A stretch of DNA of 64,000 bases from Ferroacidibacillus organovorans (GTDB taxonomy: Bacteria > Bacillota > Bacilli > Alicyclobacillales > SLC66): positions 1-64,000 of the forward strand of contig NZ_LSUQ01000002.1 of NCBI RefSeq assembly GCF_001642725.1. Direction: 5' to 3'. The notes under the pieces are model-generated. The model was not told the origin of the DNA, did no database searches, and worked only from the letters and a program-made list of their open reading frames with translations. Positions within the stretch are counted from its first letter, which is position 1. Every line of letters starts with the position of its first letter. Of the stretch, positions 39,950 through 53,466 are shown piece by piece. The position numbers and the translations under genes were made by a program.

Positions 39950-41024
39950 GGAACCATGTCTTGATCTGATTTTCAGTCGCGGCAGCGCGCACCGGGTTTA
40001 CGCGAACCCAGTGAATGCCTGCCTGTTGCCGCTGCGGATCGGGCTTCAATCCCTTGATGATCGGATTAAAATACGAATCGCCGCCGCCGTTGGCTGGATT
40101 CAACATGATCTTTTGCCCCTGTGGTGAGAGGACAAACTGGACAAACGCTTTGGCGGCCGCCATATCCGGCGCGTTTTTGTCAATCGCCATCACGCCTGGC
40201 AGCATCGCAACGCCAGTCGATGGATACACGATGCGGATCGGTTCACCAGACGCTTTTGCTTTCGTCAGTGCGGAGTCTTGAATCATGATCACCTTGACTT
40301 GGCCAGTCAAAAGGGCATTGAGCGTCACGCCGTTTGTCGGGAAAACCTTCAGTCCATTTGCTTTGAGCGCTTTAAAGTAAGCTTCTCCACCTTTGACGCC
40401 GCGCTGCTGCATGATGCCTGCGACGAATGGATAGGTCGGACCAGAAATGCTTGGATCATTCATCGCCACTTGACCTTTGAAACGCGGTGAGAGCAAATCA
40501 TTCCACGAGGTAGGCGCCTGTTTTGGCGAGAGATATTTTGTGTTATAGGCGATCGCCGCCGCCGCAGTTACGGATGCCGGAAAATAGGCGTGATCCTTCG
40601 GGAGCAAGGAGTGCCCGAGCGGCGTATAGTTTGACATATCGGATGGAGTAAAACCTTTTAGGAGCATGCCTTGGTTGGCGAGGGATTGCATGGTGGAGTC
40701 GCCGTCAAACCATGCGATGTCCCAGTGCGGATTGGTGCGCTCTGCCTCCATGCGGGCTACGATGTTTCCTGTCGAGTCATCCACGAGGTTCACTTGAATG
40801 CCCGTCTTCTTTTGAAACGCCGCCGCCATCGCCGCATCGTAGCCTTGCGCTGAGTACAGCACCAGATGACCCTTGGCTGCGGAAGCGCGCTTGGCGCTCG
40901 ACGCGTGCGGTTGTTGTGCGTTTGCAGGCACGCTTGTCGTAGATGCGTGGAGTGCAAAAGGAACAATCACAAGCGTTGCGAGTACGCCTGCTCCAAGCGT
41001 TATCCCCGTACGTGTTTTCAACAT
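39930..41024 (-). CDS. ABC substrate-binding protein (AfuA/PhnS/FbpA fold)
   Basis: LVLYS, FQKKTGI.V, STG, P.SWNDLL, DPSISG, YPSTG, FVLSPQGQ. Confidence 0.88.
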   Translation of the reverse strand: MLKTRTGITLGAGVLATLVIVPFALHASTTSVPANAQQPHASSAKRASAAKGHLVLYSAQGYDAAMAAAFQKKTGIQVNLVDDSTGNIVARMEAERTNPHWDIAWFDGDSTMQSLANQGMLLKGFTPSDMSNYTPLGHSLLPKDHAYFPASVTAAAAIAYNTKYLSPKQAPTSWNDLLSPRFKGQVAMNDPSISGPTYPFVAGIMQQRGVKGGEAYFKALKANGLKVFPTNGVTLNALLTGQVKVIMIQDSALTKAKASGEPIRIVYPSTGVAMLPGVMAIDKNAPDMAAAKAFVQFVLSPQGQKIMLNPANGGGDSYFNPIIKGLKPDPQRQQAGIHWVRVNPVRAAATENQIKTWFHDNIVQ

Positions 41025-41174
41025 AAATCCCCCTCGTGTCTGATTCGTGATTGCGTTCTATCATTCTCTTAACCTTCACGCGTCTAAGCATACGGTCGCT
41101 TTGTAAACCTAACGTGTGGGGAGTATCTACATCAGGTAAATATTCGGTATAGAATGCCTTGGCAGATCGTTACA

Positions 41175-41191
41175 TTTACAAAACCTTTACA
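41175..41191 (+). promoter_or_regulatory. Pho-box-like direct repeat
   Basis: TTTACA-N5-TTTACA, matching the Bacillus PhoP TTHACA 11-bp repeat, upstream of the phosphate symporter. Confidence 0.6.
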
Positions 41192-41305
41192 CATTGATTA
41201 TCCTTTCTTCACGAAAGAGCGATAAACTTACGTTGTATTCATCAAGTGCGGTTGAAGACACAGCCGCGTGCTATAAAACCTATTTTTTAAAGGAGCGTAC
41301 ATTCA

Positions 41306-42703
41306 GTGGCAACAAACTCAGGGGTCTTACATGCGTTCGATGAGAGTGGGCTGCAAAAATTCCACTGGAAAACCATGTTTACCACGGGAATGGGTTTCTT
41401 TACAGATGCATACGATCTCTTTATTATCGGTACCGTAACTGCAATCCTTACTCCTCTATGGCATTTGAGCACGACCGAATTGGCCATTCTAAACAGCACA
41501 TCCTTAGCGGCGGCGGCACTCGGCGCACTTTTTTTTGGCAAACTGATGGATGTCCTTGGCCGCAAAGCCATGTATGGCATCGAAGTGATCCTCTTGACGC
41601 TCGGTGCTGTATTATCCGCGTTCGCGCCTTCCTTTGGCTGGCTCGTCCTCTTTCGCTTCCTTGTAGGTCTTGGCGTAGGCGGTGACTATCCTACCAGTTC
41701 TGTCATTATGAGTGAATACTCCAATCGCAAAAATCGCGGTTTACTTGTCACCATGGTGTTCTCGATGCAAGGCCTCGGCCTTTTGGCAGGTCCATTGATC
41801 GCGTCCATTCTCCTCTCGACAGGAATGTCTCACGCAATCGCATGGCGCGTCATGCTTGGCCTCGGCGCCATCCCTGCCGCTTCTGTCATTTATCTGCGCA
41901 GAAAATTGTCCGAAACACCGCGCTATCTCGTTTCTGTAAAACAGGATCAAGCCAAAGCGGCAGAGATCGTGAGTGGACTGACTGGCGCGACGGTTTCGGC
42001 TGTAGAAAGCACGCCGCAAGCAACGCAAAAGCCTACCTTCTTAACGCGTAAAAATATTGTCCGCCTCATCGGAACAGCGGGTAGCTGGTTTCTGATCGAC
42101 GTGGCATTCTATGGCAATGGCGTTTCTTCGCAGCTTATCTTAAAGGCTCTGTTACCAAATGCATCACTTGTCACGACCACGCTCGTGGCCGCCGCAATCT
42201 TCCTGGTCGCCGCGGTTCCCGGATACTTTGTCGCCGCAAAATACATGGATCGCATCGGTCGCAAAGTGATTCAAAGCGTTGGCTTTGGCGTTATGGCGCT
42301 CGCATACCTCTCTTTGTTCCTGGTGCCCGCCATCGCAAAGCTTCCCATTCTGTTTTTAATCATCTATGGTGTCAGCTACTTCTTCATTGAATTTGGCCCG
42401 AACACAACGACCTTCTTAGTCCCATCCGAAGTCTTCCCGACCCGCTTGCGCGGCACGGGCCACGGCATGTCCGCCGCAGGCGGAAAGATCGGCGCCTTCC
42501 TTGGCGCCTTCGTGCTCCCAGGCATTCTAAAATCAGCAGGTCTTAGCAGCACCATGGGACTTCTGGCTGGCGTGTCAGCACTCGGTATTCTACTCACCTT
42601 GATCACACTGCCAGAAATGAAGCAACGCTCCCTGGAAGAAAACGAGTTACCGATCGCCCAACAGCCTTCTGCAGCAAAAAGCCTGTCTGTAACCTACTCT
42701 TAA
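41306..42703 (+). CDS. MFS phosphate:H+ symporter family protein (Pho84-like)
   Basis: GMGFFTDAYDLF, GGDYP.S, FSMQG, WFL.DVAFYG, FGPNTTTF..PSE.FPT. Confidence 0.85.
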   Translation: MATNSGVLHAFDESGLQKFHWKTMFTTGMGFFTDAYDLFIIGTVTAILTPLWHLSTTELAILNSTSLAAAALGALFFGKLMDVLGRKAMYGIEVILLTLGAVLSAFAPSFGWLVLFRFLVGLGVGGDYPTSSVIMSEYSNRKNRGLLVTMVFSMQGLGLLAGPLIASILLSTGMSHAIAWRVMLGLGAIPAASVIYLRRKLSETPRYLVSVKQDQAKAAEIVSGLTGATVSAVESTPQATQKPTFLTRKNIVRLIGTAGSWFLIDVAFYGNGVSSQLILKALLPNASLVTTTLVAAAIFLVAAVPGYFVAAKYMDRIGRKVIQSVGFGVMALAYLSLFLVPAIAKLPILFLIIYGVSYFFIEFGPNTTTFLVPSEVFPTRLRGTGHGMSAAGGKIGAFLGAFVLPGILKSAGLSSTMGLLAGVSALGILLTLITLPEMKQRSLEENELPIAQQPSAAKSLSVTYS

Positions 42704-42707
42704 TACG

Positions 42708-42766
42708 ACACAAAAAACACCTGACGTTTTGCTCGAGCGACGAGCGACGTCAGGTGTTTTTTGTGT
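42708..42766. terminator. Bidirectional terminator between convergent MFS and hutP
   Basis: 20-bp perfect arms ACACAAAAAACACCTGACGT/ACGTCAGGTGTTTTTTGTGT. Confidence 0.8.
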
Positions 42767-42788
42767 TCACGCTCCATAACAGAACAGA

Positions 42789-43235
42789 CTACATGTGATT
42801 GATCCCGATGCCAAGCGCCTCATGCTCCCACCCTTTGACGGGCGCGCCGATCGTGCCATAAAAAGCGACGGCGATCCACTCCCCTTCGTCAGGCGACGCA
42901 TAGGGCCTCCCACGCACAATCGAAAAGCGCAGCCCCACCGTTCGCAACTGTGCCCCAAACGAGACGACGCCGCGCCCCACACCCAGTAACGCTTCCATAA
43001 TCGCGTGATACAGCGCGTGTTCCTCGCGATACCGCTCTGAACTGATGATTCCATTTTTCTTCGCCGCCGTCTCCACTGCCGCAACAATCTTTTGCGAATC
43101 CATCGTGCCCACTCTACCCAGGGCCACCGTAAAGCCGCTCTCATCAAGCGCTTTGAGCAGGCGATCCTGCTCCTCTCCCTCACCGGAGAGTACGAGTAGC
43201 ATCGCCGCTTTACCGATTTGATTTTTAGGAAACAT
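42789..43235 (-). CDS. hutP: Hut operon RNA-binding antiterminator HutP
   Basis: IGKAAMLL, G.VG.M, YREEHALYHA..EAL.G, LRTVGLRFSIVRG, YGTIGAP.KG.EHE..G.GINH. Confidence 0.95.
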   Translation of the reverse strand: MFPKNQIGKAAMLLVLSGEGEEQDRLLKALDESGFTVALGRVGTMDSQKIVAAVETAAKKNGIISSERYREEHALYHAIMEALLGVGRGVVSFGAQLRTVGLRFSIVRGRPYASPDEGEWIAVAFYGTIGAPVKGWEHEALGIGINHM

Positions 43236-43331
43236 CGCGCCCACCCCACTTGTCAATCCAAATCACGCCTATAGCTTACCACGAAGCGTCGCAGCGACGT
43301 TCCCTGCAGTTTTCTCATGTGACAATGATCC

Positions 43332-44819
43332 TCAGACAAACGATTGGCTGATCCAGTGGGCAAGACGCTCAATGTCTTCGGAATAGGCGCGATCCTGATC
43401 GATAAAAGGGACGCTCGCGCGAATCTGCTGATGCAGTTTGCGCGTTTTTGGCGCCAGTCGATCGACGCCGCGAAGATCGGCCGCCTGCGCGGCGCAAATT
43501 CCCTCGATGGCGAGCACCCGCCGAACATTATGGATGATCTGATGCGCGTGGCGTGCGCCGATCGTTCCCATACTCACGTGATCCTCCTGATTGGCCGAAG
43601 AGGGGATGGAATCCACGCTCGCCGGATGCGCCAACGTCTTGTTTTCTGATACCAACGATGCGGCAGCGTACTGTGTGATCATCAGTCCCGATTGAAGGCC
43701 TGGCTGTGGACTCAAAAAGGCTGGCAGATCATTTAGCTGCGGATTGACCAGACGCTCAATCCGGCGCTCGGAAATGTTGGCGAGCTCTGCCATCGCGATT
43801 CCGAGGAAATCCATCGCAAACGCGATGGGCTGCCCGTGGAAATTACCTCCGGATATCACGCGTCCAGTGTCTGAGAAAATGAGCGGGTTGTCGGTTGCAG
43901 CATTCATCTCAATGAGTAATTTCTCCTTGACATAAGTAAGTACCTGACGGATCGCTCCGTGCACCTGCGGAATACAGCGCAGCGAGTACGCATCCTGTAC
44001 GCGAATCTCTCCCTGTCTTGTCGTCAACTGGCTCCCTTCCACATATGAAAGCACCCGATCGGCAACCTCGCGCTGCTCAGGATAGGGGCGAACATCCTGC
44101 GCTTCTGGCGCGAACGCGTCAACGACACCGCGCAACGCCTCTAAAGTGAGCGCGGCGACGCCATCCGCAAATTCCGCCAGGCGCTCCGCCTCAAGGTAGG
44201 CGATCACGCCCACCGCGGTCATCGCCTGCGTGCCATTGATCAGCGCCAAACCTTCTTTTGCCTGCAGGCGAATCGGCGTCAGTCCCGCTTGCGAGAGCGC
44301 CTCCCCACCGCTCATCACTCTCCCGTCATAGTGCGCCTTGCCTTCGCCGATCAGCACGAGCGCCAAGTGAGCAAGCGGCGCCAGATCGCCACTCGCGCCG
44401 AGCGACCCTTGGCTCGGAATCACCGGATGGATTTGCTGGTTCAGGCAATCCACCAAGCGCTGCAATGTCTCTTTGCGACAGCCCGAGTAGCCTTTGGCAA
44501 GCGCGTTTGCGCGCAACAGCAGCATGGCGCGGCTGACTCTTTCTGAAAACGGATCGCCGATGCCACACGCGTGACTGCGGATCAGATTCAGTTGCAGCGC
44601 TTCAACGTCACCGACTGGAATCACAACGTCACTGAATTTGCCAAACCCTGTCGTGACACCATAGATCACGTTCCCCTCCGCGAGATTGCGCTCGACAACC
44701 GCTCTACTTTTCTCGATGTTTTGCCAGGCGTTCGGGTGAATCTCAACGGATTCAAAGTCGTACAGAACACGCGCCACCTGATCGAGGGTGAGTCCGTTTC
44801 CATCCAAATAAATCGTCAT
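43332..44819 (-). CDS. hutH: Histidine ammonia-lyase
   Basis: [17 protein letters not shown] (MIO), [32 protein letters not shown]. Confidence 0.97.
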
Positions 44820-44871
44820 CTCGTCAACTCCTATTGGAATACCGTTCCGAAACAGCGCGCGTGCTATGCGT

Positions 44872-44951
44872 AAAAAGATAGAGAGGACTAGAGCAAGAAA
44901 CCGAAGTTTCCTACCCTAGCCCCCTACTCACACATCGCTATGGGCTGTTTT
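44872..44951 (-). terminator. HutP-dependent attenuator (UAG repeats plus terminator) in hutH leader
   Basis: Minus strand AAAACAGCCCATAG...TAGGGGGCTAGGGTAGGAAAC-TTCG-GTTTCTTGCTCTAGTCCTCT-CTATCTTTTT: 20-bp stem with G-U pairs, cUUCGg loop, five TAG triplets. Confidence 0.8.
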
Positions 44952-45001
44952 ATCTCATCGCGTTCATTTCACTCATGACTTGTGACTACCTACCTTGTTA
45001 A

Positions 45002-45030
45002 AACCTATGCCGCGCGCGGCGAATTGTCAA
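45002..45030 (-). promoter_or_regulatory. Putative sigma-A promoter for hutH
   Basis: TTGACA-N17-TAGGTT, the -35 overlapping the hutG stop codon. Confidence 0.6.
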
Positions 45031-45989
45031 ACGTTCGCACCTTTTGCGAGTGATTTTCCCGCTAAAAACGCCAAAAGGAGGTTTGTCGCCACACGCGTCG
45101 TAAAATCCCGCACGTCCTGCGCAGGATCGGCGCACACAAAATCAACGGCTTGAACGTTCGATTTTGCCCCGAGCCACTCCAGTGCCTCGAGCGCATCCCA
45201 GACCGTGAGACCACCCGGCCCCGGCGCCGGAACACCTGGCACGAAGCTCTGATCGAGCACATCCATGTCAAAGCTCACATACACGCCATCCGTCTCTTTG
45301 CTCACGTGAGCATACGCTTCTTCGAGCACCTGTGCGAGCCCCGTCCGAAACACCTGCCGCGCCGTCACAACCGTGACGCCTTCCTGCACAACATACGCGT
45401 GATACGCCTTTGCGTTCACGTAGTCGCGGATGCCGATTTGCACCACGTGTCTCCCGGCAATCGCGCCTGAGTCGAGCAATGTCCGAAACGGTGTGCCGTT
45501 GGAACGTCCGCCATCCTCCAGATTCCGCACGTCATGGTGCGCGTCAAAGTGAATGACCCCATACGTCCGCTTGGTGGCGCGCGTCAGTCCGAGCAGCGCA
45601 GCGCCTGTGATCGAGTGGTCACCGCCAAGTAGCACGAGCGGCTGTGCATGCGTCTCGCCATAAGAGTACACCGCATCTTCGATCCACTTCTGGCACAGTG
45701 CGAGATCCGTAAGATGCATCTGCACATTTCCGAGATCCGCAACGCGCAGTCGCTCGCTCAGATCCATTTGGTGATGGACACTGTACGGGCTGTAGCTGTG
45801 AAACAGCGCACGAATCGCGTCCGGAAGCCGGAAAGCGGCTGAGTGGCTGATCGATGTCTTACTGAGCGGCGCCCCGAGCAAGGCGATGTCAAACCTGCTC
45901 GCGCTGTCATACGGAAACACCCAATCCGCGACCTTCGGGTCAAGGCGATCGCGAAATCGCGAAAATGGAGGTTCAACACGTTGTATCAA
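45027..45989 (-). CDS. hutG: Formimidoylglutamase (arginase/agmatinase family)
   Basis: GGDHS, FDAHHD, SNGTPF, SFDMD; TTG 45989 overlaps hutI stop with GGAAAGGTGG RBS. Confidence 0.88.
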   Translation of the reverse strand: MIQRVEPPFSRFRDRLDPKVADWVFPYDSASRFDIALLGAPLSKTSISHSAAFRLPDAIRALFHSYSPYSVHHQMDLSERLRVADLGNVQMHLTDLALCQKWIEDAVYSYGETHAQPLVLLGGDHSITGAALLGLTRATKRTYGVIHFDAHHDVRNLEDGGRSNGTPFRTLLDSGAIAGRHVVQIGIRDYVNAKAYHAYVVQEGVTVVTARQVFRTGLAQVLEEAYAHVSKETDGVYVSFDMDVLDQSFVPGVPAPGPGGLTVWDALEALEWLGAKSNVQAVDFVCADPAQDVRDFTTRVATNLLLAFLAGKSLAKGANV

Positions 45990-47272
45990 AAGGGTACCAC
46001 CTTTCCATCTGTGACGACGATTCTCCCTTTTTTCACCACCGTATCGACGTGATTGATCCCAAAGTGATACGGAAGGTAGGCGAGATTTGGCGCGTGATAA
46101 AGGACAAGATCCGCCTGCTTGCCAACTTCCAGGCTGCCAATCTGATCCGCCCGTCCGATCGCGTGCGCCGCGTTGATTGTAAGCGCCGTGATTACCTCTT
46201 CTGGCGTCATCCGCAGATGAAGACACGCCAAGGTCATCACAAGTTGGAGTGACTCCGTCGGCGAACTCCCCGGGTTATAGTCGGTCGAAAGTGCGACTGA
46301 CACGCCCATCTCAATCATCGCGCGCGCCCGCGCGTGATTGGCCACACGCAGGTTAAACGAGGTGGCCGGCAGACAGACGGCGACGACACCCGCGCGCGCC
46401 ATCGCGTTCAGTCCTTCGTCAGTCGCCGCCAGCAGGTGTTCCGCAGAGATACAACCAAGCTCCGCCGCCAGTTCCGCGCCGCCCATCGATTCAATCTCGT
46501 CTGCGTGGATTTTCAGCCCGAACCCAAGCGTGCGCGCCGCGCGCAGGATCGCACGTGACTGCTCCACGGTGAACACGCCGTGCTCGCAAAACACGTCACA
46601 AAACTCCGCGAGGCCAAGCCGTTTGATCTCGGGAAGCATCGTGTCGATCACGGTCGACACATACGCGTCCGCGCGCTCCTTGTACTCAGTAGGCACCGCG
46701 TGCGCGCCCATGAATGTTGACACCACGTCGACCGCGTGCGTCTCTTGCAAACGCTTTGCGACGCGCAGTTGTTTCAGTTCATCCTCGAGCGTGAGGCCAT
46801 ACCCACTTTTCGCCTCGACCGTCGTCGCGCCATAAAGCAGCATCGTGTCAAGACTCTTTTTTGCCTTCACATAGAGTTCATCCTCTGTCGCCGCGCGCGT
46901 CATTTCCACCGTGCTAAGGATTCCTCCGCCTTGCGCCAGAATCTCTAAGTAGGTTACACCCCGTAACTTTAGCGCAAGCTCGTGCTCCCGCGATCCGCCG
47001 TGCACGAGGTGTGTGTGCGGATCGATAAGACCTGGCGTCACCAGCCGCCCCTGCGCGTCCAGTTCTTGCAAAATCGCGCGCCCTGCGATCTGATCGCGCA
47101 CATCCTCCTCGCGCCCTGCCGCGAGGATCAAGCCATCGCCAATCGCCACGGCGCCGCCTGCGACCGCGCCGATTTCTGCCATGCTCGCACCTGAGCGCGG
47201 ACCTGGCCCTCCGCGCATCGTGATCAGCGTCCCGACATTGTGCACCAGCAGGTCCACTGCGCCTTCTGCCAC
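45986..47272 (-). CDS. hutI: Imidazolonepropionase
   Basis: PGLIDPHTH, GGGILSTV, KSGYGL, GAHA, DVFCE, HADE, TDYNPGS; RBS before GTG 47272. Confidence 0.95.
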   Translation of the reverse strand: MAEGAVDLLVHNVGTLITMRGGPGPRSGASMAEIGAVAGGAVAIGDGLILAAGREEDVRDQIAGRAILQELDAQGRLVTPGLIDPHTHLVHGGSREHELALKLRGVTYLEILAQGGGILSTVEMTRAATEDELYVKAKKSLDTMLLYGATTVEAKSGYGLTLEDELKQLRVAKRLQETHAVDVVSTFMGAHAVPTEYKERADAYVSTVIDTMLPEIKRLGLAEFCDVFCEHGVFTVEQSRAILRAARTLGFGLKIHADEIESMGGAELAAELGCISAEHLLAATDEGLNAMARAGVVAVCLPATSFNLRVANHARARAMIEMGVSVALSTDYNPGSSPTESLQLVMTLACLHLRMTPEEVITALTINAAHAIGRADQIGSLEVGKQADLVLYHAPNLAYLPYHFGINHVDTVVKKGRIVVTDGKVVPF

Positions 47273-47288
47273 GTTCTTCCCTCCCGTC

Positions 47289-48962
47289 TCAGATCCCAAG
47301 CATTGGAACGCGCACCCCACGCTCCTTTGCCACGTCGATCGCCTTCTCGTACCCAGCGTCCGCATGCCGGATGATCCCCATGCCAGGGTCTGTCGTCAAC
47401 ACGCGCGACAATCGTTCGTCCGCCTCATCGGTTCCATCGGCCACGACCACCATTCCGGCGTGCAGCGAATAACCCATCCCGACGCCCCCGCCGTGGTGAA
47501 ACGAGACCCAACTCGCGCCAGAAGCGGTGTTCACAAGTGCGTTCAAAACGGCCCAGTCGGCCACCGCGTCGCTGCCATCCTTCATCGCCTCTGTTTCACG
47601 ATTGGGCGAGGCGACCGATCCGCAGTCCAGATGGTCGCGGCCAATCACGATCGGGGCCAGCAACTCGCCATTTCGCACCATCTCGTTGATCGCGAGACCA
47701 AACTTCATCCGCTCGCCATAGCCAAGCCAGCAGATTCGGGCTGGCAGTCCCTGAAACGCCACTTTTTCACGAGCGAGCTTGATCCAACGGTGAAGCGCCT
47801 CATTCTCAGGAAAGAGCTTTAGCACCAATTCATCCGTTTTTTCGATATCGCGCGGGTCGCCAGAAAGTGCCGCCCAACGAAACGGCCCTTTGCCCTCGCA
47901 AAAAAGCGGTCGAATGTACGCGGGAACAAAGCCTGGAAAAGAAAACGCGTCCTGCACGCCTTCGTCAAACGCCACCTGCCGGATGTTATTGCCATAGTCA
48001 AAAACGACCGAACCCATCCTCTTGAAATCAAGCATCGCCTGCACGTGCGTTGCCATCGCCTTTTTCGCGAGCGCCACATATGCTTTTGGGTCGCTTTTGC
48101 GAAGTTCTGCCGCCGCGTCAAGCGTATATCCGACAGGAATGTAGCCGTTGAGTGGATCGTGCGCCGACGTTTGATCTGTCACAAAATCCGGCACAATACC
48201 GCGGCGAACCATCTCCGGCAAAACTTCAGCCGCGTTGCCGACAAGTCCGATTGAGAGCGGCTCCCCTCTCTCCTGTGCGGCGCGCGCGCGCGAAAGCGCC
48301 TCATCCAGATCATGCACAAGCACGTCACAGTAGCGCGTCTCGACACGACGCTTGATGCGCGACGGGTCGATCTCAACCCCGATGAACACACCTTCATTCA
48401 TGGTGACGGCAAGCGGTTGCGCGCCGCCCATTCCGCCAAGTCCGGCGCTCAGCGTAAGCGTCCCTCTAAGCGTGCCCCCGCTGTGCTGGCGCGCCGCTTC
48501 CGCGAATGTCTCGTAAGTGCCTTGGAGGATGCCTTGACTACCAATATAGATCCAGCTTCCCGCGGTCATCTGGCCGAACATGATGAGTCCCTTTTGATCC
48601 AATTCGTGAAACGTCTCCCAGTTCGCGAATGCCGGCACCAACACGGAATTCGAAAGGAGCACGCGCGGCGCGTGGCGGTGCGTGCGAAAGACGCCCACCG
48701 GTTTCCCAGATTGGATCAAGAGGGTTTCATCCGCCTCAAGATCGCGCAGGCACTCCACAATCTTGTCAAAGCTTGCCCAGTTTCGCGCGGCTTTTCCAAT
48801 TCCGCCGTACACGACGAGATCTTCGGGGCGTTCCGCCACCTCCGGGTCAAGGTTGTTCATCAGCATCCGCAATACCGCCTCTTGCTGCCAGCCTTTTGCG
48901 CTGATCTCCGTTCCGCGCGGCGCTCGAATGACGCGCGCTGTCGATGTCAATCCATCACTCAT
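47289..48962 (-). CDS. hutU: Urocanate hydratase
   Basis: [54 protein letters not shown] before ATG 48962. Confidence 0.97.
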
Positions 48963-49007
48963 GTCTTCCGTCTCCTTTGCCATGCGAACGTATAATCCCA
49001 TCGTACG

Positions 49008-49021
49008 CGGAAACGCTTACA
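49008..49021 (-). promoter_or_regulatory. cre-like site upstream of hutU
   Basis: TGTAAGCGTTTCCG, one terminal mismatch to cre consensus. Confidence 0.55.
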
Positions 49022-49075
49022 CAAAAACGGTCGCGGATTGTTCTTTCCTAGCACAATCTTGCGGTCGTTCACGTC

Positions 49076-50278
49076 TCAGACCGCGTGCGCAGCCCGATAC
49101 GCTTTGGGCGTACAGCCGTATTCCTTTTTGAACATCCTGCCAAAATAGTTTGCGTCAGAAAACCCCGCAAGCGTTGCGATCTGTTGCAGGGAGAGGGTCG
49201 AGGAGGTGAGATAAAAAGCGGCTTTTTCAAGTCGAATGCGGCGAACGTAGTCCATCACGCTAAGGCCTACCTCCTGCTTGAAGCGATGGCTGAGATGATA
49301 CTTGCTAAGACACGCCACCTTTGCAATCTGATCAAGGGTCAAGGGGTCCTGGTGGTGGTGATGGATATACTGAAGCGCATCGCGAATCACTGGCGAACAC
49401 GCCGACATTCGCGAAGTGTCAACACGTGACGTAAGCCACTGCGCATACGCCAGGACATGGCCGACAAACGTGTCGTAGCGAATGGTCTGATAGAGGTCGT
49501 GGACAAACCGGGCATTCTTTGAGAGGATTTCCGCCGCGCTGATCCCCGCGTTAACGACCTCTCGCGACATCTGCATCAGCAGATCAATGACTTCCGATTT
49601 GAAGCCCTCAACCTTCCTCTGGCAATCCTCCGCCAGTCGCAAAAGGATCATCGGCACCAAGACGCTGACGCCGCGCACATCCCCAAGCTTTACGCGCGCG
49701 ATCAATTCGAGCTTTTCTTCCGCGCGCAATGGATTTGGCACAACGCCAACATCCTGTACGTCGCACGCGCGGTAAAGCTGCTGATTGCCCTGAAAGAATC
49801 GCCCGCTCATCGCGCGCAGCGCTTCTTGATACGCGCGACGCAATTGAAGTGGCTCCGCGCAGAGCGCGCTGATGCCGATTGACACAGCGAGATCACGCGC
49901 TGCAAGCGCATGCTGAAGTAGCTTTGCAGTCTGTGTCACGCGTGCCTCGGTATGAAGGAGCTGCGATCCGCACGCGTGATCCATCTGAAAAAGCACCACG
50001 AGCACGCCTTCTTCTGTCCAGATGCAGGTGGTTGGCACGCCTTCGCGCGCCATGGTGTTAGCAACCGTCTCGCGCAGCGCGTGACCGACCTCTTTAGGCC
50101 ACGAAGGCGGATACTCGTTGACTCGCTGTGGGTAGCGGTCGATCGACACGATGAAGATCCCGTTTGGGCAAAGCGAGATGCCACACGCTTCTTGCAGCTT
50201 TGCGAAGTCCCCTTCGTGAACAAACGTTCCTGAGATCAACCCGTGCGCAAACGCAATCTCCGCGTGACGCATCTCCAC
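49076..50278 (-). CDS. AraC-family regulator with CdaR/GGDEF-like sensor region
   Basis: VSIGIS...AYQEA.RA segment; C-terminal double HTH ending GFSDANYFGRMFKK.YG.TP..YR. Confidence 0.9.
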   Translation of the reverse strand: MEMRHAEIAFAHGLISGTFVHEGDFAKLQEACGISLCPNGIFIVSIDRYPQRVNEYPPSWPKEVGHALRETVANTMAREGVPTTCIWTEEGVLVVLFQMDHACGSQLLHTEARVTQTAKLLQHALAARDLAVSIGISALCAEPLQLRRAYQEALRAMSGRFFQGNQQLYRACDVQDVGVVPNPLRAEEKLELIARVKLGDVRGVSVLVPMILLRLAEDCQRKVEGFKSEVIDLLMQMSREVVNAGISAAEILSKNARFVHDLYQTIRYDTFVGHVLAYAQWLTSRVDTSRMSACSPVIRDALQYIHHHHQDPLTLDQIAKVACLSKYHLSHRFKQEVGLSVMDYVRRIRLEKAAFYLTSSTLSLQQIATLAGFSDANYFGRMFKKEYGCTPKAYRAAHAV

Positions 50279-50327
50279 GTTTCAACACCTCTGCTGTTCG
50301 ACCTATTCGCGGCGCAAGCGTTTGCCT

Positions 50328-50795
50328 TCAATCCCCCTTTTTCTGCGGCGGCTGGTATGTTCCCGGCAGGGCGCCTGTCGCGATGGACAAACGATTCCAA
50401 CTGTTGATCGTGTTGATCGCCATGACGAGCTGGATGTACTGTTTCTCGCTAAAGTGTTCGCGCACGCGCGCAAAGAGTTCATCCGACACGTGATGCGTCG
50501 AGATCTGCGTGAGCGTTTCCGTCAGTTCCAGCGCTGCCCGCTCGGCGTCGGAGTAAAACGGGGATTCGCGCCAGGCGTTTAGCAGATAGAGGCGCTGCTC
50601 GGTCTCTTCCCCCGCGCGCGCATCGATCGTGTGCATGTCGATGCAAAACGCGCAGCCATTGATTTGAGAGGCGCGAATTTTGACCAGTTCGAGCATCTTG
50701 GGATCAAGCCCGCTCTGGCGGACATAACGTTCCAGATGCATCATGGCGTTCCTGACGTCCGGATCAACCTGTGCATAATTCATGCGTGGTTCCAT
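50328..50795 (-). CDS. Carboxymuconolactone decarboxylase/AhpD family protein (YdfG-like)
   Basis: ELVKIRASQINGCAFCIDMH, WRES, ERAAL, INSWNR. Confidence 0.92.
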   Translation of the reverse strand: MEPRMNYAQVDPDVRNAMMHLERYVRQSGLDPKMLELVKIRASQINGCAFCIDMHTIDARAGEETEQRLYLLNAWRESPFYSDAERAALELTETLTQISTHHVSDELFARVREHFSEKQYIQLVMAINTINSWNRLSIATGALPGTYQPPQKKGD

Positions 50796-50938
50796 GGCAA
50801 AGACCCCCCCGTGCGAATTTGGTATGATAGACAGCGCAACCGTCACGCGAAAAGGGCGCTCGGCGCCGTTTCGCGAAGTATCATCCTATTATGACACAAC
50901 CATAATGACACTGTACCATCGATCAGGGGGAATGAACC

Positions 50939-51502
50939 GTGGAGAATCAGCGCTCGGCGCTGCTCGTGATGGACCTGCAAAACGGAATTGTTTCGCGTTT
51001 TGCGCAGAGTGACGAAGTGTTGGCACCGTTTGCAAAAGCTGTCGCAGCCGCGCGGCAGGCAAAGATGCCTGTCATCTACGTGCGCGTAGCGTTTCGCGAA
51101 GGCTATCCAGAGGTGAGTGCGCGCAACAAGTCGTTCGCGGCGATTGCGGGCCACGGTGGAATGACCGAAGGGGATGCGGCAACACAGATCCATGCGTCAG
51201 TTGCGCCGCGCCAGGATGAACCGATCGTCACAAAACGACGCGTGAGCGCGTTTGCCGGAAGTGATCTCGATGTGATCTTGCGCGCGCGACGGATTGACAC
51301 GCTTGTCCTGTGCGGGATCGCCACGAGCGGCGTCGTCCTCTCCACCGTGCGAGAGGCGGCAGATATGGACTTCGGGCTGATCGTACTCTCTGACGCGTGC
51401 CTCGACGCCGACCCTGAGGTGCATCGTGTTCTCGTGGAAAAGGTGTTTCCGCGACAGGCGGACGTCTTGTGTGTCGACGAGTGGATCGCGACGCTTACCT
51501 AA
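50939..51502 (+). CDS. Isochorismatase-family hydrolase
   Basis: ALLVMDLQ, KRRVSAF.GSDL, GIATSGVVLST.REA.D. Confidence 0.9.
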   Translation: MENQRSALLVMDLQNGIVSRFAQSDEVLAPFAKAVAAARQAKMPVIYVRVAFREGYPEVSARNKSFAAIAGHGGMTEGDAATQIHASVAPRQDEPIVTKRRVSAFAGSDLDVILRARRIDTLVLCGIATSGVVLSTVREAADMDFGLIVLSDACLDADPEVHRVLVEKVFPRQADVLCVDEWIATLT

Positions 51503-52493
51503 GCGACTCTTCTTCGAGCCATGTGCGCATCATGGCGCGATAGTGAACGGTGGGACCGTCTGAGCGGACGTGCGCCTCACGGTGCAGATCATAAGGCGGC
51601 GCCACGGGCCGGATGCTCTCGATGATCGCCTGATCTTGCCCCATCACAAAGCGTGTGTGGCTTAGATGAAACTCGTCAAGGAGTGGCGAGTCCATGTCAA
51701 AATTGCGCGCGACCGCTCCAAAGATCTCGGTCGTTTGCGTATCGCACGGCGTAAACGTGAGGAACGTGCACATCGCATTTCCATCCCCCATTGGGGTGCG
51801 GATGATCCAGAGGTTTGGCGCGCGCAGTTCGATTTCTGTGCGCTCATCTTCTGTTTCAACGGCTTCCACAGGTTCCATCGGATGGACAGGGGCAAACGGT
51901 TTGGGGTGAATGAGGATGCGGTTAGACGTCAACGCGTACTCAGGGCCATCCACCTCTGGGTTCACACCTGCGCCTGTCGTTTGCGGGTGGACAAACGGCA
52001 GATGGGAGACATCGAGAACGCTTTCCACGACCCGCACGAAATGCGCATGCCACGTCGCCCGAAACGGCGTGCGCGTCCAGTTATCCGAACACAGTTCCGG
52101 AAACAAGTCAGGCTCCGTTGAAGCGTCCATATCCACACGTTTCGGCGCTGTGTAAAGCCACACCCATTCCGCTTTCTCGCACGCTTCGTAGGTCGCGCGC
52201 GCCGCATTTTTCGGCACATCCCAAACACCACGATTCGCAGGCACGCGCGTGCAGCGTCCGTCGCGGTCAAAGCGCCAGCCGTGAAAAGGGCAGATGAGTT
52301 CGGCGCCTTCCACCGTCCCCAGCGACAGGTCACACCCGCGATGCGGGCAGTAGGCATCCCCGGCGCAGACCATCCCCTTCTCATCCCGGTAGAGAACATA
52401 ATCCTGCCCGTGAATTGTCACCTTCATCGGTTTTGTTGTCAGGTTTTCTCGCTGCGTCACAGCGTACCAGGCACCTCGAATCACATCGCTCAC
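51495..52493 (-). CDS. Rieske non-heme iron oxygenase subunit (VanA-like)
   Basis: CPHRG...CPFHGW Rieske motif, E..LD.SH..FVH iron site, QD near C-terminus. Confidence 0.9.
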   Translation of the reverse strand: MSDVIRGAWYAVTQRENLTTKPMKVTIHGQDYVLYRDEKGMVCAGDAYCPHRGCDLSLGTVEGAELICPFHGWRFDRDGRCTRVPANRGVWDVPKNAARATYEACEKAEWVWLYTAPKRVDMDASTEPDLFPELCSDNWTRTPFRATWHAHFVRVVESVLDVSHLPFVHPQTTGAGVNPEVDGPEYALTSNRILIHPKPFAPVHPMEPVEAVETEDERTEIELRAPNLWIIRTPMGDGNAMCTFLTFTPCDTQTTEIFGAVARNFDMDSPLLDEFHLSHTRFVMGQDQAIIESIRPVAPPYDLHREAHVRSDGPTVHYRAMMRTWLEEESLR

Positions 52494-52590
52494 CCCGCAA
52501 GATCACTCAGCCAAATCCTTTCTTTATCGTATGGCGAGTACGCGATAAACTCCCGCGGCAAGTACCCATTGCAACCACAAAACGCTGAGA

Positions 52591-53466
52591 TCAATCAACT
52601 TGTGCCATTGCGTTTCGATGGAAGCGAACCGAAAGCCAACGCGCGGTTAGCACGACAAACAAGAGGACAAGCAATCTGGATGCCACGCTTAGAAGAATGA
52701 TATGATTTGGAGATTCGAGTGGTGGGGGATTCTTGAATAGTAGATCATGGAAAGTTCGCCACAGTAAAAATTTCACTGTATCTCGCACCACAGGCCACAC
52801 GCTTATCGCAATAGAGTAAATCAAAGGTACGGCGCTGCTCCACACATTTTTTGTCCAGCCAAATAAGACTAAACCAAATCCATAAAGCGTGATCAAACCA
52901 AAGAAACTCTCGTAAACAACTCTGAAGTAAGGTGAGGTATACAAAAACCAACTCGGCAATAAAATATTTCCCAAAATGGATGGTTGATTGGTAGATGCTG
53001 ACGGTTCCATAAGCGCAAAAATGGATCGATCATGGGATTGAAGATAAGCAATACAAAAGGGTATCAAGCCAACGTACAACGCCCATCGATCTTTACGTTT
53101 TCTCGTAGTACTAAACATGATTGACAATATAGCAAGACAGAGCATAAGCGAAGGAGAAAACAGTGGCACGCGCGGCGTGAGAATTACAAAAATAAAGAAT
53201 AATACAACAAAGAGGCTCGCAATTCGCACAATCCAAGCACTGGACATGCCAAACGCACTCGCCGTCAATTGTCTGCGAAGTTTTGAAGGATTTCCACACT
53301 GTTGGATGGCTATCTCCAACGCATCTGGTTGGCTGAAACCTCGCGACATAAAATCTTCTACGGTTTCTTCAAGATGTACCCTCAACTCATCCGCTCGATC
53401 CTGCCGCTCGCGTTTGCTGAAGAAACTCCAATAAAAAACTCGCTCAAGATAATCATCAATTTTCAC
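52591..53466 (-). CDS. Membrane protein with N-terminal permease-prefix/HAAS-like domain
   Basis: IDDYL...ELRVHLEE.....G.S...A...AI...GNP then about 6 TMs; GTGA overlap with PadR. Confidence 0.78.
   Translation of the reverse strand: MKIDDYLERVFYWSFFSKRERQDRADELRVHLEETVEDFMSRGFSQPDALEIAIQQCGNPSKLRRQLTASAFGMSSAWIVRIASLFVVLFFIFVILTPRVPLFSPSLMLCLAILSIMFSTTRKRKDRWALYVGLIPFCIAYLQSHDRSIFALMEPSASTNQPSILGNILLPSWFLYTSPYFRVVYESFFGLITLYGFGLVLFGWTKNVWSSAVPLIYSIAISVWPVVRDTVKFLLWRTFHDLLFKNPPPLESPNHIILLSVASRLLVLLFVVLTARWLSVRFHRNAMAQVD

Follow-up and report, generated by a model that had tools for sequence, protein, structure and literature searches.

A histidine-utilization cluster of Ferroacidibacillus organovorans with a predicted AraC-type regulator of hutUIG and a HutP-type leader before hutH-hutP

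Layout of the hut cluster

A histidine-utilization (hut) gene cluster was analyzed in a stretch of 64,000 nucleotides (nt) of Ferroacidibacillus organovorans DNA (contig NZ_LSUQ01000002.1, positions 1 to 64,000; hereafter the window, in whose full length all coordinates are given), which belongs to a 3.03-Mb genome assembly that is 96.8% complete. Six cluster genes, all on the minus strand between 42789 and 50278, were identified by matches to Pfam and NCBIfam profiles as follows.

49076..50278, minus strand: gene for an AraC-type regulator of 400 amino acids (HTH_18, 86.8 bits; HTH_AraC; N-terminal GGDEF_2, 36 bits)
47289..48962, minus strand: hutU, urocanate hydratase (TIGR01228, 1002.8 bits)
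45986..47272, minus strand: hutI, imidazolonepropionase (TIGR01224, 477.7 bits)
45027..45989, minus strand: hutG, formimidoylglutamase of the arginase fold (PF00491, 223.7 bits; TIGR01227, 221.9 bits, just below the cut-off of 229.15)
43332..44819, minus strand: hutH, histidine ammonia-lyase (TIGR01225, 711.4 bits)
42789..43235, minus strand: hutP, histidine- and Mg-activated RNA-binding antiterminator of 148 amino acids (NF002838, 214.2 bits; cut-off 155)

Judging from ribosome-binding sites, the true start codons are probably ATG at 48962 for hutU, GTG at 47272 for hutI, TTG at 45989 for hutG and ATG at 43235 for hutP. Along the minus strand the cluster runs from the regulator gene through hutU, hutI and hutG to a promoter-like site, a leader rich in XAG and UAG triplets, a terminator with a stem of 20 base pairs (bp), hutH and hutP. 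This order had been given by an earlier interpretation made from the letters of the window (the sequence-only reading), and it was borne out by the strong family matches, the terminator and the number of TAG triplets. From the evidence described below we propose, with a probability of about 0.7, that the cluster is divided into two modules, in which the AraC-type regulator would activate hutUIG, and HutP together with histidine would gate hutH-hutP.

A search of the host genome gave no second hutH, and the gene in the window is the sole copy found. The claimed lack of hutC agreed with the same genome, in which no protein reached the HutC model cut-off, the best match (on another contig) scoring 127.8 bits versus 220 bits for his_ut_repres. 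No permease gene lies inside the cluster, as had been stated for hutM; a HutM-like permease was not searched for across the genome.

The hutH-hutP module and its leader

Four elements were located in the spacer between hutG and hutH.

45002..45030, minus strand: candidate internal promoter TTGACA-17-TAGGTT, the -35 hexamer of which (45030-45025) overlaps the hutG stop codon, with the -10 hexamer at 45007-45002 (sequence)
44972..44996, minus strand: HutP site-I-like element AAG-g-UAG-g-UAG-ucac-AAG-ucau-GAG (sequence pattern)
44911..44942, minus strand: second XAG cluster, with UAG at 44940, 44926, 44918 and 44913, reaching from just upstream of the terminator into its 5′ arm
44872..44925, minus strand: intrinsic terminator with a 20-bp stem (44925-44882), a 4-nt loop and the T-run CTATCTTTTT (folding and terminator scan)

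The leader folds with -71.2 kcal/mol (z -3.25). No other stretch of its length on the two strands of the window is as rich in TAG as the 207-nt spacer, which contains 10 of these triplets (mean 0.97; one of 6380 sliding windows reaches 10), and 10 TAG were reached in 30 of 10000 mononucleotide shuffles. The core of the first element, UAG-N4-AAG-N4-GAG, occupies 44988-44972, and the pattern TAG-N4-NAG-N4-NAG occurs four times in the 128 kb of both strands. According to the accessible portions of two articles, HutP recognizes XAG triplets that are grouped in threes, in two clusters around the terminator (PMC2425495; PMC12591593), a rule with which the leader of the window agrees apart from two details considered below, and the XAG triplets of Bacillus subtilis are separated by 2-4 nt (accessible portion of PMC12591593).

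Comparison with the sister species G001 showed that the XAG triplets of the leader are kept and that their spacers and first bases vary (ucau to ccac; UAG to GAG or CAG); in the second cluster of G001, two of the four triplets read GAG and CAG and are thus still XAG. The terminator stem is also kept, the changes in it being compensated by conversion of U:G to C:G pairs. The claim of a UAG-rich terminator before hutH is upheld by these data, since the 20-bp stem and the TAG density are accompanied by a canonical HutP-type site that is retained in G001. The internal promoter that had been claimed is upheld in so far as TTGACA-17-TAGGTT does precede the leader; its -10 hexamer and its detectability are considered below. 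At the same place before the leader, TTGAC(A/G/T)-17-TAnnnT was found in G001, in L032 (a record named Alicyclobacillus) and in three Paenibacillus loci, and in Paenibacillus the equivalent promoter of related hutH-hutP loci is followed by textbook UAG-N4-UAG-N4-UAG sites. No operator for the AraC-type regulator was found at the hutH promoter, where the best half-site scored -10.2 bits. Transcripts started at the hutU promoter would meet no terminator on their way from hutG into the leader, and would therefore also reach the HutP-controlled terminator.

HutP of the window also matches PF09021 (115.1 bits), and its residues 4-148 align over the full length to the structure of B. subtilis HutP (1WMQ, E 4.6e-52). 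Identity between the two proteins extends to the residues that we take to be the ligands of histidine and Mg, namely both histidines of the HALYHA motif, that of EHE, the glutamate of MEAL and the arginine of TRG/GRG. Distribution was determined in an independent sample of 401 genomes across the class, of which 50 contain HutP. At the 49 HutP loci other than that of the window, hutP lies upstream of hutH in 46 (with a 3-kb gap in one) and stands alone in two, and hutH followed by hutP, a rare order, was found in L171 only among these sampled loci. The hutH-hutP order was also seen in G001 (locus L012), L032, L043, L045 and L051. In the window, hutP follows hutH by 96 nt with no terminator between them, so that hutP is most likely co-transcribed with hutH and autoregulated through the leader; lying behind its own terminator, hutP would form a positive-feedback loop.

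Some variation was observed in the hutH-hutP spacer. In L043 and L045 (Paenibacillus), a strong promoter (TTGACA-17-TATAAT) and a UAG-rich leader with a terminator stand before hutP itself, apart from those of hutH; the spacer of L051 has neither such a promoter nor such a UAG stretch. The spacer of the window (43257-43331) shares with that of G001 (L012) the block CTTCGTG(G/A)TAAGCT...GATTTGGAT within otherwise poorly conserved sequence, and this block might be a weak extended -10 promoter giving basal hutP expression.

Downstream of hutP, at 42709..42765 (no strand assigned), a bidirectional terminator hairpin recognized from the sequence ends both hutP and a convergent gene for a major facilitator superfamily (MFS) transporter. 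An Rfam scan of 40000-53000 (E≤1) gave matches to mir-87 alone, on both strands, which were regarded as spurious reflections of this hairpin. The convergent MFS gene (41306-42703) was considered as a member of the system and rejected, since its product is 26-29% identical to those of operator-controlled MFS genes elsewhere and no operator match was found within 3 mismatches.

The AraC-type regulator and its operator

The C-terminus of the regulator contains a double helix-turn-helix (HTH), as is typical of the AraC/XylS family (PF12833, 86.8 bits; PF00165, 67.3 bits). The GGDEF_2 match (PF17853) covers residues 62-157, and a helical linker connects the sensor region to the HTHs. An AlphaFold2 model (mean pLDDT 89.3), in which the GGDEF-like N-terminal fold is predicted confidently, was submitted to Foldseek, and the matches were dominated by the DNA-binding domains of AraT, YesN, AraC and MarA (TM score to the target, 0.73-0.88). 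For the N-terminal part, GGDEF domains and a fragment of the regulator Rv2242 were matched weakly; these matches fit the Pfam assignment and offer no clue to the ligand. No NCBIfam equivalog model reached its cut-off, and the 69 relatives found by protein search carry generic names only ("AraC family", "YesN") in their source records. The regulator is a true member of the AraC/XylS family with an unusual sensor domain, and not a HutC protein. Its gene is intact, and the product is 99% identical to the counterpart in G001.

The genomic context of the family was surveyed by scanning one genome per species with an alignment of 35 relatives, which yielded 80 loci. Of these, 52 (L013-L064) form an orthologue-like set, and the other 28 match the HTH domain only or show at most 28% identity. 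Genes of the hut pathway lie within 10 kb at 51 of the 52 orthologue-like loci versus one of the 28 others. In the class-wide sample, an orthologue (threshold, E≤1e-50) was found in 20 of the 401 genomes and adjoins hut genes in all 20. The co-conservation on which the sequence-only reading had made its proposal depend is therefore present in both surveys. Among the 52 loci, hutU lies downstream of the regulator gene in 27 (as hutUIG or hutGUI), a divergent histidase gene lies directly upstream in 27, often with an MFS gene, and both layouts occur together in five. The divergent histidases are 40-47% identical to HutH of the window and reach or nearly reach histidase models (568, 579 and 552 bits versus 524 for NF006871).

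The regulator and HutP occur together in only four of the 401 genomes (G000, G136, G149 and G238), and neither was found in the seven other genomes of the same family in that sample; in the search for relatives, a full-length orthologue was found in G001 alone among the 18 other genomes of the family that were searched. A two-module split with the canonical hutP-hutH order recurs at L168, L165, L152 and L148, and in G149 the two modules sit on separate contigs.

Two further groups of AraC-type genes were noted in these surveys. A second, distant gene (24-25% identical) directly adjoins hutP or hutU in L165, L168, L152 and L081, in L168 together with a regulator orthologue, and more than one AraC lineage may thus be tied to hut genes. 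In L060 (5248-11185; Paenibacillus), a third regulator paralogue is accompanied by the same operator and a cre-like site (see below) before genes for an NCS1 permease, an M20 amidohydrolase and a flavin amine oxidase; these targets are not hut genes, and the family may also sense other imidazole or amine compounds.

The spacer between the regulator gene and hutU contains the following elements, including one that resembles a catabolite-responsive element (cre).

49048..49063, minus strand: distal operator site CGCAAGATTGTGCTAG, matching the family consensus (23.9 bits, half-site matrix)
49026..49042, minus strand: proximal operator position AACAATCCGCGACCGTT, offset by 21 bp from the distal site towards hutU and adjoining the -35 position, off the family consensus (-14.3 bits)
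49008..49021, minus strand: cre-like site TGTAAGCGTTTCCG between -35 and -10 (12 of 14 consensus positions)
49000..49005, minus strand: -10 hexamer TACGAT of the hutU promoter, at the same position as TAAGAT, TACGAT and TATGAT in orthologous loci

At the orthologous loci, a conserved operator was found as a bipartite direct repeat, AGCAAnATTGTGCTA-N7/8-CAAnnTTnnGCTAGA, with halves 21 bp apart (consensus of 36 distinct sites). It begins at the stop codon of the regulator gene or just past it and extends up to an activator-type promoter without a good -35, being followed in several loci by a cre-like element and then by a TAnGAT -10 hexamer. It precedes hutU or hutG, or elsewhere an MFS transporter gene with divergent histidase. 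A full matrix was made from the 36 sites, and half-site matrices were used in addition. On an independent sample, all 15 of 15 loci gave full-matrix scores of 23.5-53.6 bits where the site was expected, and at least five of these loci lie on the same contigs as training loci; the top score of the matrix anywhere in the genome of the window was 6.7 bits.

The distal site, which starts 13 nt past the regulator stop codon, is the only position of at least 20 bits for the half-site matrix in the 3.03-Mb genome. The next-best half-sites, by genes for a thioredoxin-like protein, a 3H-domain regulator and MarC, were taken as chance matches, the genes being unrelated. A regulon beyond hutUIG could not be defined in this genome, since no full-matrix site exceeds 6.7 bits. 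From the regulator stop codon to just past the -10 hexamer, 87 of 87 nt are identical in G001, and the identity in other spacers is 160/222 (72%) for hutG-hutH and 72/149 (48%) for hutH-hutP. On these comparisons we read the operator of the window as probably functional, its distal half being strong and its proximal half weak or specific to the lineage. The -35 position of the hutU promoter, GTTTTT, is a poor match, as would suit dependence on an activator, and neither this promoter nor the internal one was listed by the consensus promoter scan.

The cre-like site that had been noted before hutU is present by comparison with the cre consensus, and at the same offset stronger equivalents, such as TGAAAGCGGTTTC, occur in several orthologous loci; the significance of the match in the window is considered below. 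The statement that no attenuator hairpin precedes hutU held as well: the short 5′ untranslated region of hutU forms no hairpin (-3 kcal/mol, z 0.22), and neither a terminator-like site nor an XAG/terminator leader was found between the regulator gene and hutU. HutP gating thus appears limited to the histidase transcript, as had been suggested, since hutU is devoid of the kind of leader that precedes hutH with its canonical site conserved in G001.

Three observations were made beside these elements. A sequence like the distal half, AACAATATTGTGCTA, occurs on the opposite strand inside the regulator gene, about 225 nt before its stop codon, in many orthologous loci (for example L018:10973); because it falls on the conserved protein motif A-Q-Y-C-C, coding constraint probably accounts for it, an autoregulatory site being the less probable reading, and it was not present in the window at up to 3 mismatches. 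In L033, L034, L056 and L062, hutG is separated from the operator-controlled promoter by a conserved leader of about 300 nt. Upstream of the regulator gene on the same strand (50328-52493), the window contains a gene of the CMD/AhpD family, an unannotated open reading frame (ORF) of 116 amino acids and a gene for a Rieske/VanA-type oxygenase; the gap between the CMD gene and the regulator gene is about 50 nt, and the regulator may be co-transcribed with this upstream group.

Interpretation and comparison with known systems

The proposed mechanism is as follows. In the first module, the AraC-type protein would bind the direct-repeat operator that reaches the poor -35 and would activate hutU-hutI-hutG, rather than repress them, and catabolite repression may be added through the cre-like site that lies between -35 and -10. 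The GGDEF-like N-terminal region would bind the effector, a compound of the pathway, most likely urocanate and next histidine. In the second module, hutH-hutP would be transcribed from its own promoter, and by read-through from hutG, into the terminator leader. HutP loaded with histidine and Mg would bind two groups of XAG triplets, one at the 5′ end of the leader and the other in the 5′ arm of the stem, and would block the hairpin, so that RNA polymerase could proceed into hutH and hutP. Because hutP sits behind the terminator, basal read-through would have to seed HutP, and induction would be self-reinforcing. The net effect would be that histidine turns on histidase, that its product (or histidine itself) turns on the three downstream enzymes, and that external urocanate could be used without histidase being made.

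Several points weigh against this proposal. The full operator of the window scores 0.2 bits and its proximal half -14.3 bits, which makes dimeric binding, and with it activation, less certain in this genus than in others. Taken alone, the cre-like match lacks significance, with 69 matches in the window at that stringency versus 52 expected. In the leader, the triplets of the second XAG cluster are unevenly spaced (11, 5 and 2 nt), and about 45 nt separate the two clusters versus 12-17 nt in Bacillus (accessible portion of PMC2425495). The internal promoter has a weak -10 hexamer (three of six positions) and went unlisted by the scan. The position of hutP behind its own terminator requires leakiness, which is presumed here. 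Finally, the same type of operator precedes a histidase gene at 27 of the 52 loci, which fits a histidine sensor equally well.

The ligand was considered from gene content. Urocanate is our leading candidate, although we would not put it at even odds; histidine is the less probable second choice, and some other pathway compound is less probable again. In L026, the locus checked with Pfam, hutG-hutU-hutI follow a Liv-type ABC transporter under the operator, without histidase; a gap of the same size (about 4.6 kb) was found in seven further loci of apparently this layout, and the same ORF pattern in L021. Ten genomes contain the regulator without HutP and without an adjacent histidase gene, and in nine a canonical histidase gene lies elsewhere. 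G376 (97% complete, locus L200) has the regulator, the 4.6-kb gap and hutG-hutU-hutI with no histidase match at E≤1e-50, and is a candidate urocanate-only user. On such comparisons, layouts of the L026 type and G376 may be taken as hints for urocanate. The unlinked histidase genes of genomes with the regulator and without HutP lack the operator and have their own leader with a terminator, so that histidase seems to be controlled separately from hutUIG there too. At L204-L211 a promoter stands before the unlinked histidase gene, with a leader of about 100 nt, a strong terminator and then a conserved GTTCTCTGCTCTGCTAAAGGAGG-like stretch common to several genera; this leader gave no Rfam match at E≤0.1, no obvious regulator gene lies nearby in L205, and the leader may be an undescribed attenuator or riboswitch for histidase.

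These data bear directly on an arrangement with the same two modules in which the regulator senses histidine, so that both switches would read one signal in parallel and not as a cascade. It would suit the 27 loci at which the regulator gene directly follows a divergent histidase gene (often with an MFS gene) and its operator precedes that operon, for which a sensor of histidine would be a simple means of control. Where HutP is present, however, sensing histidine a second time seems redundant, and the operator also precedes the ABC transporter and hutGUI without histidase, as in the layouts above, and G376 keeps the regulon without a detectable histidase. Moreover, the urocanate-sensing HutC of Proteobacteria controls histidase genes as well (accessible portion of PMC12591593), so that linkage to histidase is no argument for histidine. 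We consider this parallel arrangement unlikely. Less likely still is one long operon from the hutU promoter, with an inactive internal promoter and the terminator as an internal attenuator, in which hutH would need both the AraC signal and HutP with histidine. The uninterrupted path from hutG into the leader, the poor internal -10 hexamer and the failure of the scan to call the site agree with such an operon, but G001, L032 and three Paenibacillus loci have retained a perfect -35 at 17-nt spacing here although the sequence around it has diverged, and if the AraC signal is urocanate, histidine could not induce histidase without an independent promoter.

It is more improbable again that in this genus the AraC-type protein represses hutUIG or has ceased to control them, hutUIG being constitutive or subject to catabolite control only. 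The reason in either case would be decay of the proximal operator half, and the low scores of that half and of the full site speak for it. This is opposed by the complete identity of the operator-promoter region between the two species (87 of 87 nt, as against 72% and 48% in the other spacers), by the distal site being the best of the genome, and by the intact regulator gene, which is nearly identical in G001. A strong distal and a weak proximal site are also the layout of araI1-araI2 in Escherichia coli.

We therefore return to the two-module proposal. At the level of which regulator controls which genes, the two-tier control that had been proposed appears well supported by comparison of loci, namely by the co-location of regulator and hut genes, by an operator before hutU only and by a HutP-type leader before hutH only; the sequential cascade, and urocanate as the signal read by the AraC-type protein, are possibilities only. 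That the AraC/GGDEF-like family is a urocanate-responsive activator of hutUIG and transporters across spore-forming Bacilli, acting in series with a HutP module reduced to hutH-hutP, is put forward tentatively. If true, a self-reinforcing histidine switch would feed a second switch that senses the product, and growth on external urocanate would be possible without histidase. Such a natural two-step cascade would allow substrate and product sensing to be compared.

Control of hut genes has two well-known textbook solutions, the HutC repressor and the HutP antiterminator. Other dedicated hut regulators of Gram-positive bacteria reportedly include HutR of Corynebacterium resistens (IclR type) and a HutR of Staphylococcus; to our knowledge, regulators named HutR belong to the IclR and LysR families and not to the AraC family. 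The accessible portion of a review of RNA-binding antiterminators describes hutPHUIGM only (PMC12591593), and no description of an AraC-type hut regulator or of a hutH-hutP layout was found in the searchable literature, a scope outside which supplements and the hut review of Bender (2012) lie. The present data point to a third dedicated family of hut regulators in Bacilli with a recognizable operator, and give a testable name and target site to proteins labelled only "AraC family" or "YesN". Its predicted regulon varies by lineage, comprising hutUIG, hutGUI with an ABC transporter, or an MFS transporter with divergent histidase. The data also suggest that HutP control can be confined to histidase alone, and that a variant of HutP is autoregulated through its own terminator.

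Compared with HutC, a GntR-type, urocanate-responsive repressor of Proteobacteria, the regulator of the window may be analogous in being a dedicated DNA-binding regulator of hut genes that possibly reads the first intermediate, but it belongs to another protein family and its operator layout points to an activator and not to a repressor. It resembles E. coli AraC in its C-terminal double HTH and in direct repeats 21 bp apart, the proximal one reaching a poor -35, and differs from it in that the N-terminus is GGDEF-like (PF17853) with helices and not a cupin. Regulators of the PucR type (Rv2242 fragment, PDB 9f80) likewise have a putative GGDEF_2-type sensor before the DNA-binding domain, with a weak Foldseek match (E 2.9e-3; TM score to the query 0.26, root-mean-square deviation 15.9), whereas the DNA-binding domain of the window regulator is of the AraC type. 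With hutPHUIGM of B. subtilis the cluster shares an orthologous HutP, XAG-rich RNA before and inside a terminator preceding hutH, and a cre-like element. Unlike that operon, it has no permease gene, its second XAG cluster is irregular and the linker longer, hutP is not the first gene but follows hutH behind the terminator and is hence most likely autoregulated, and only hutH-hutP lie downstream of the terminator, with hutUIG upstream under another promoter. In this cluster a member of the predicted family of hut regulators, with its operator, is joined to a HutP half that would work like the B. subtilis system but lacks two of its layout features.

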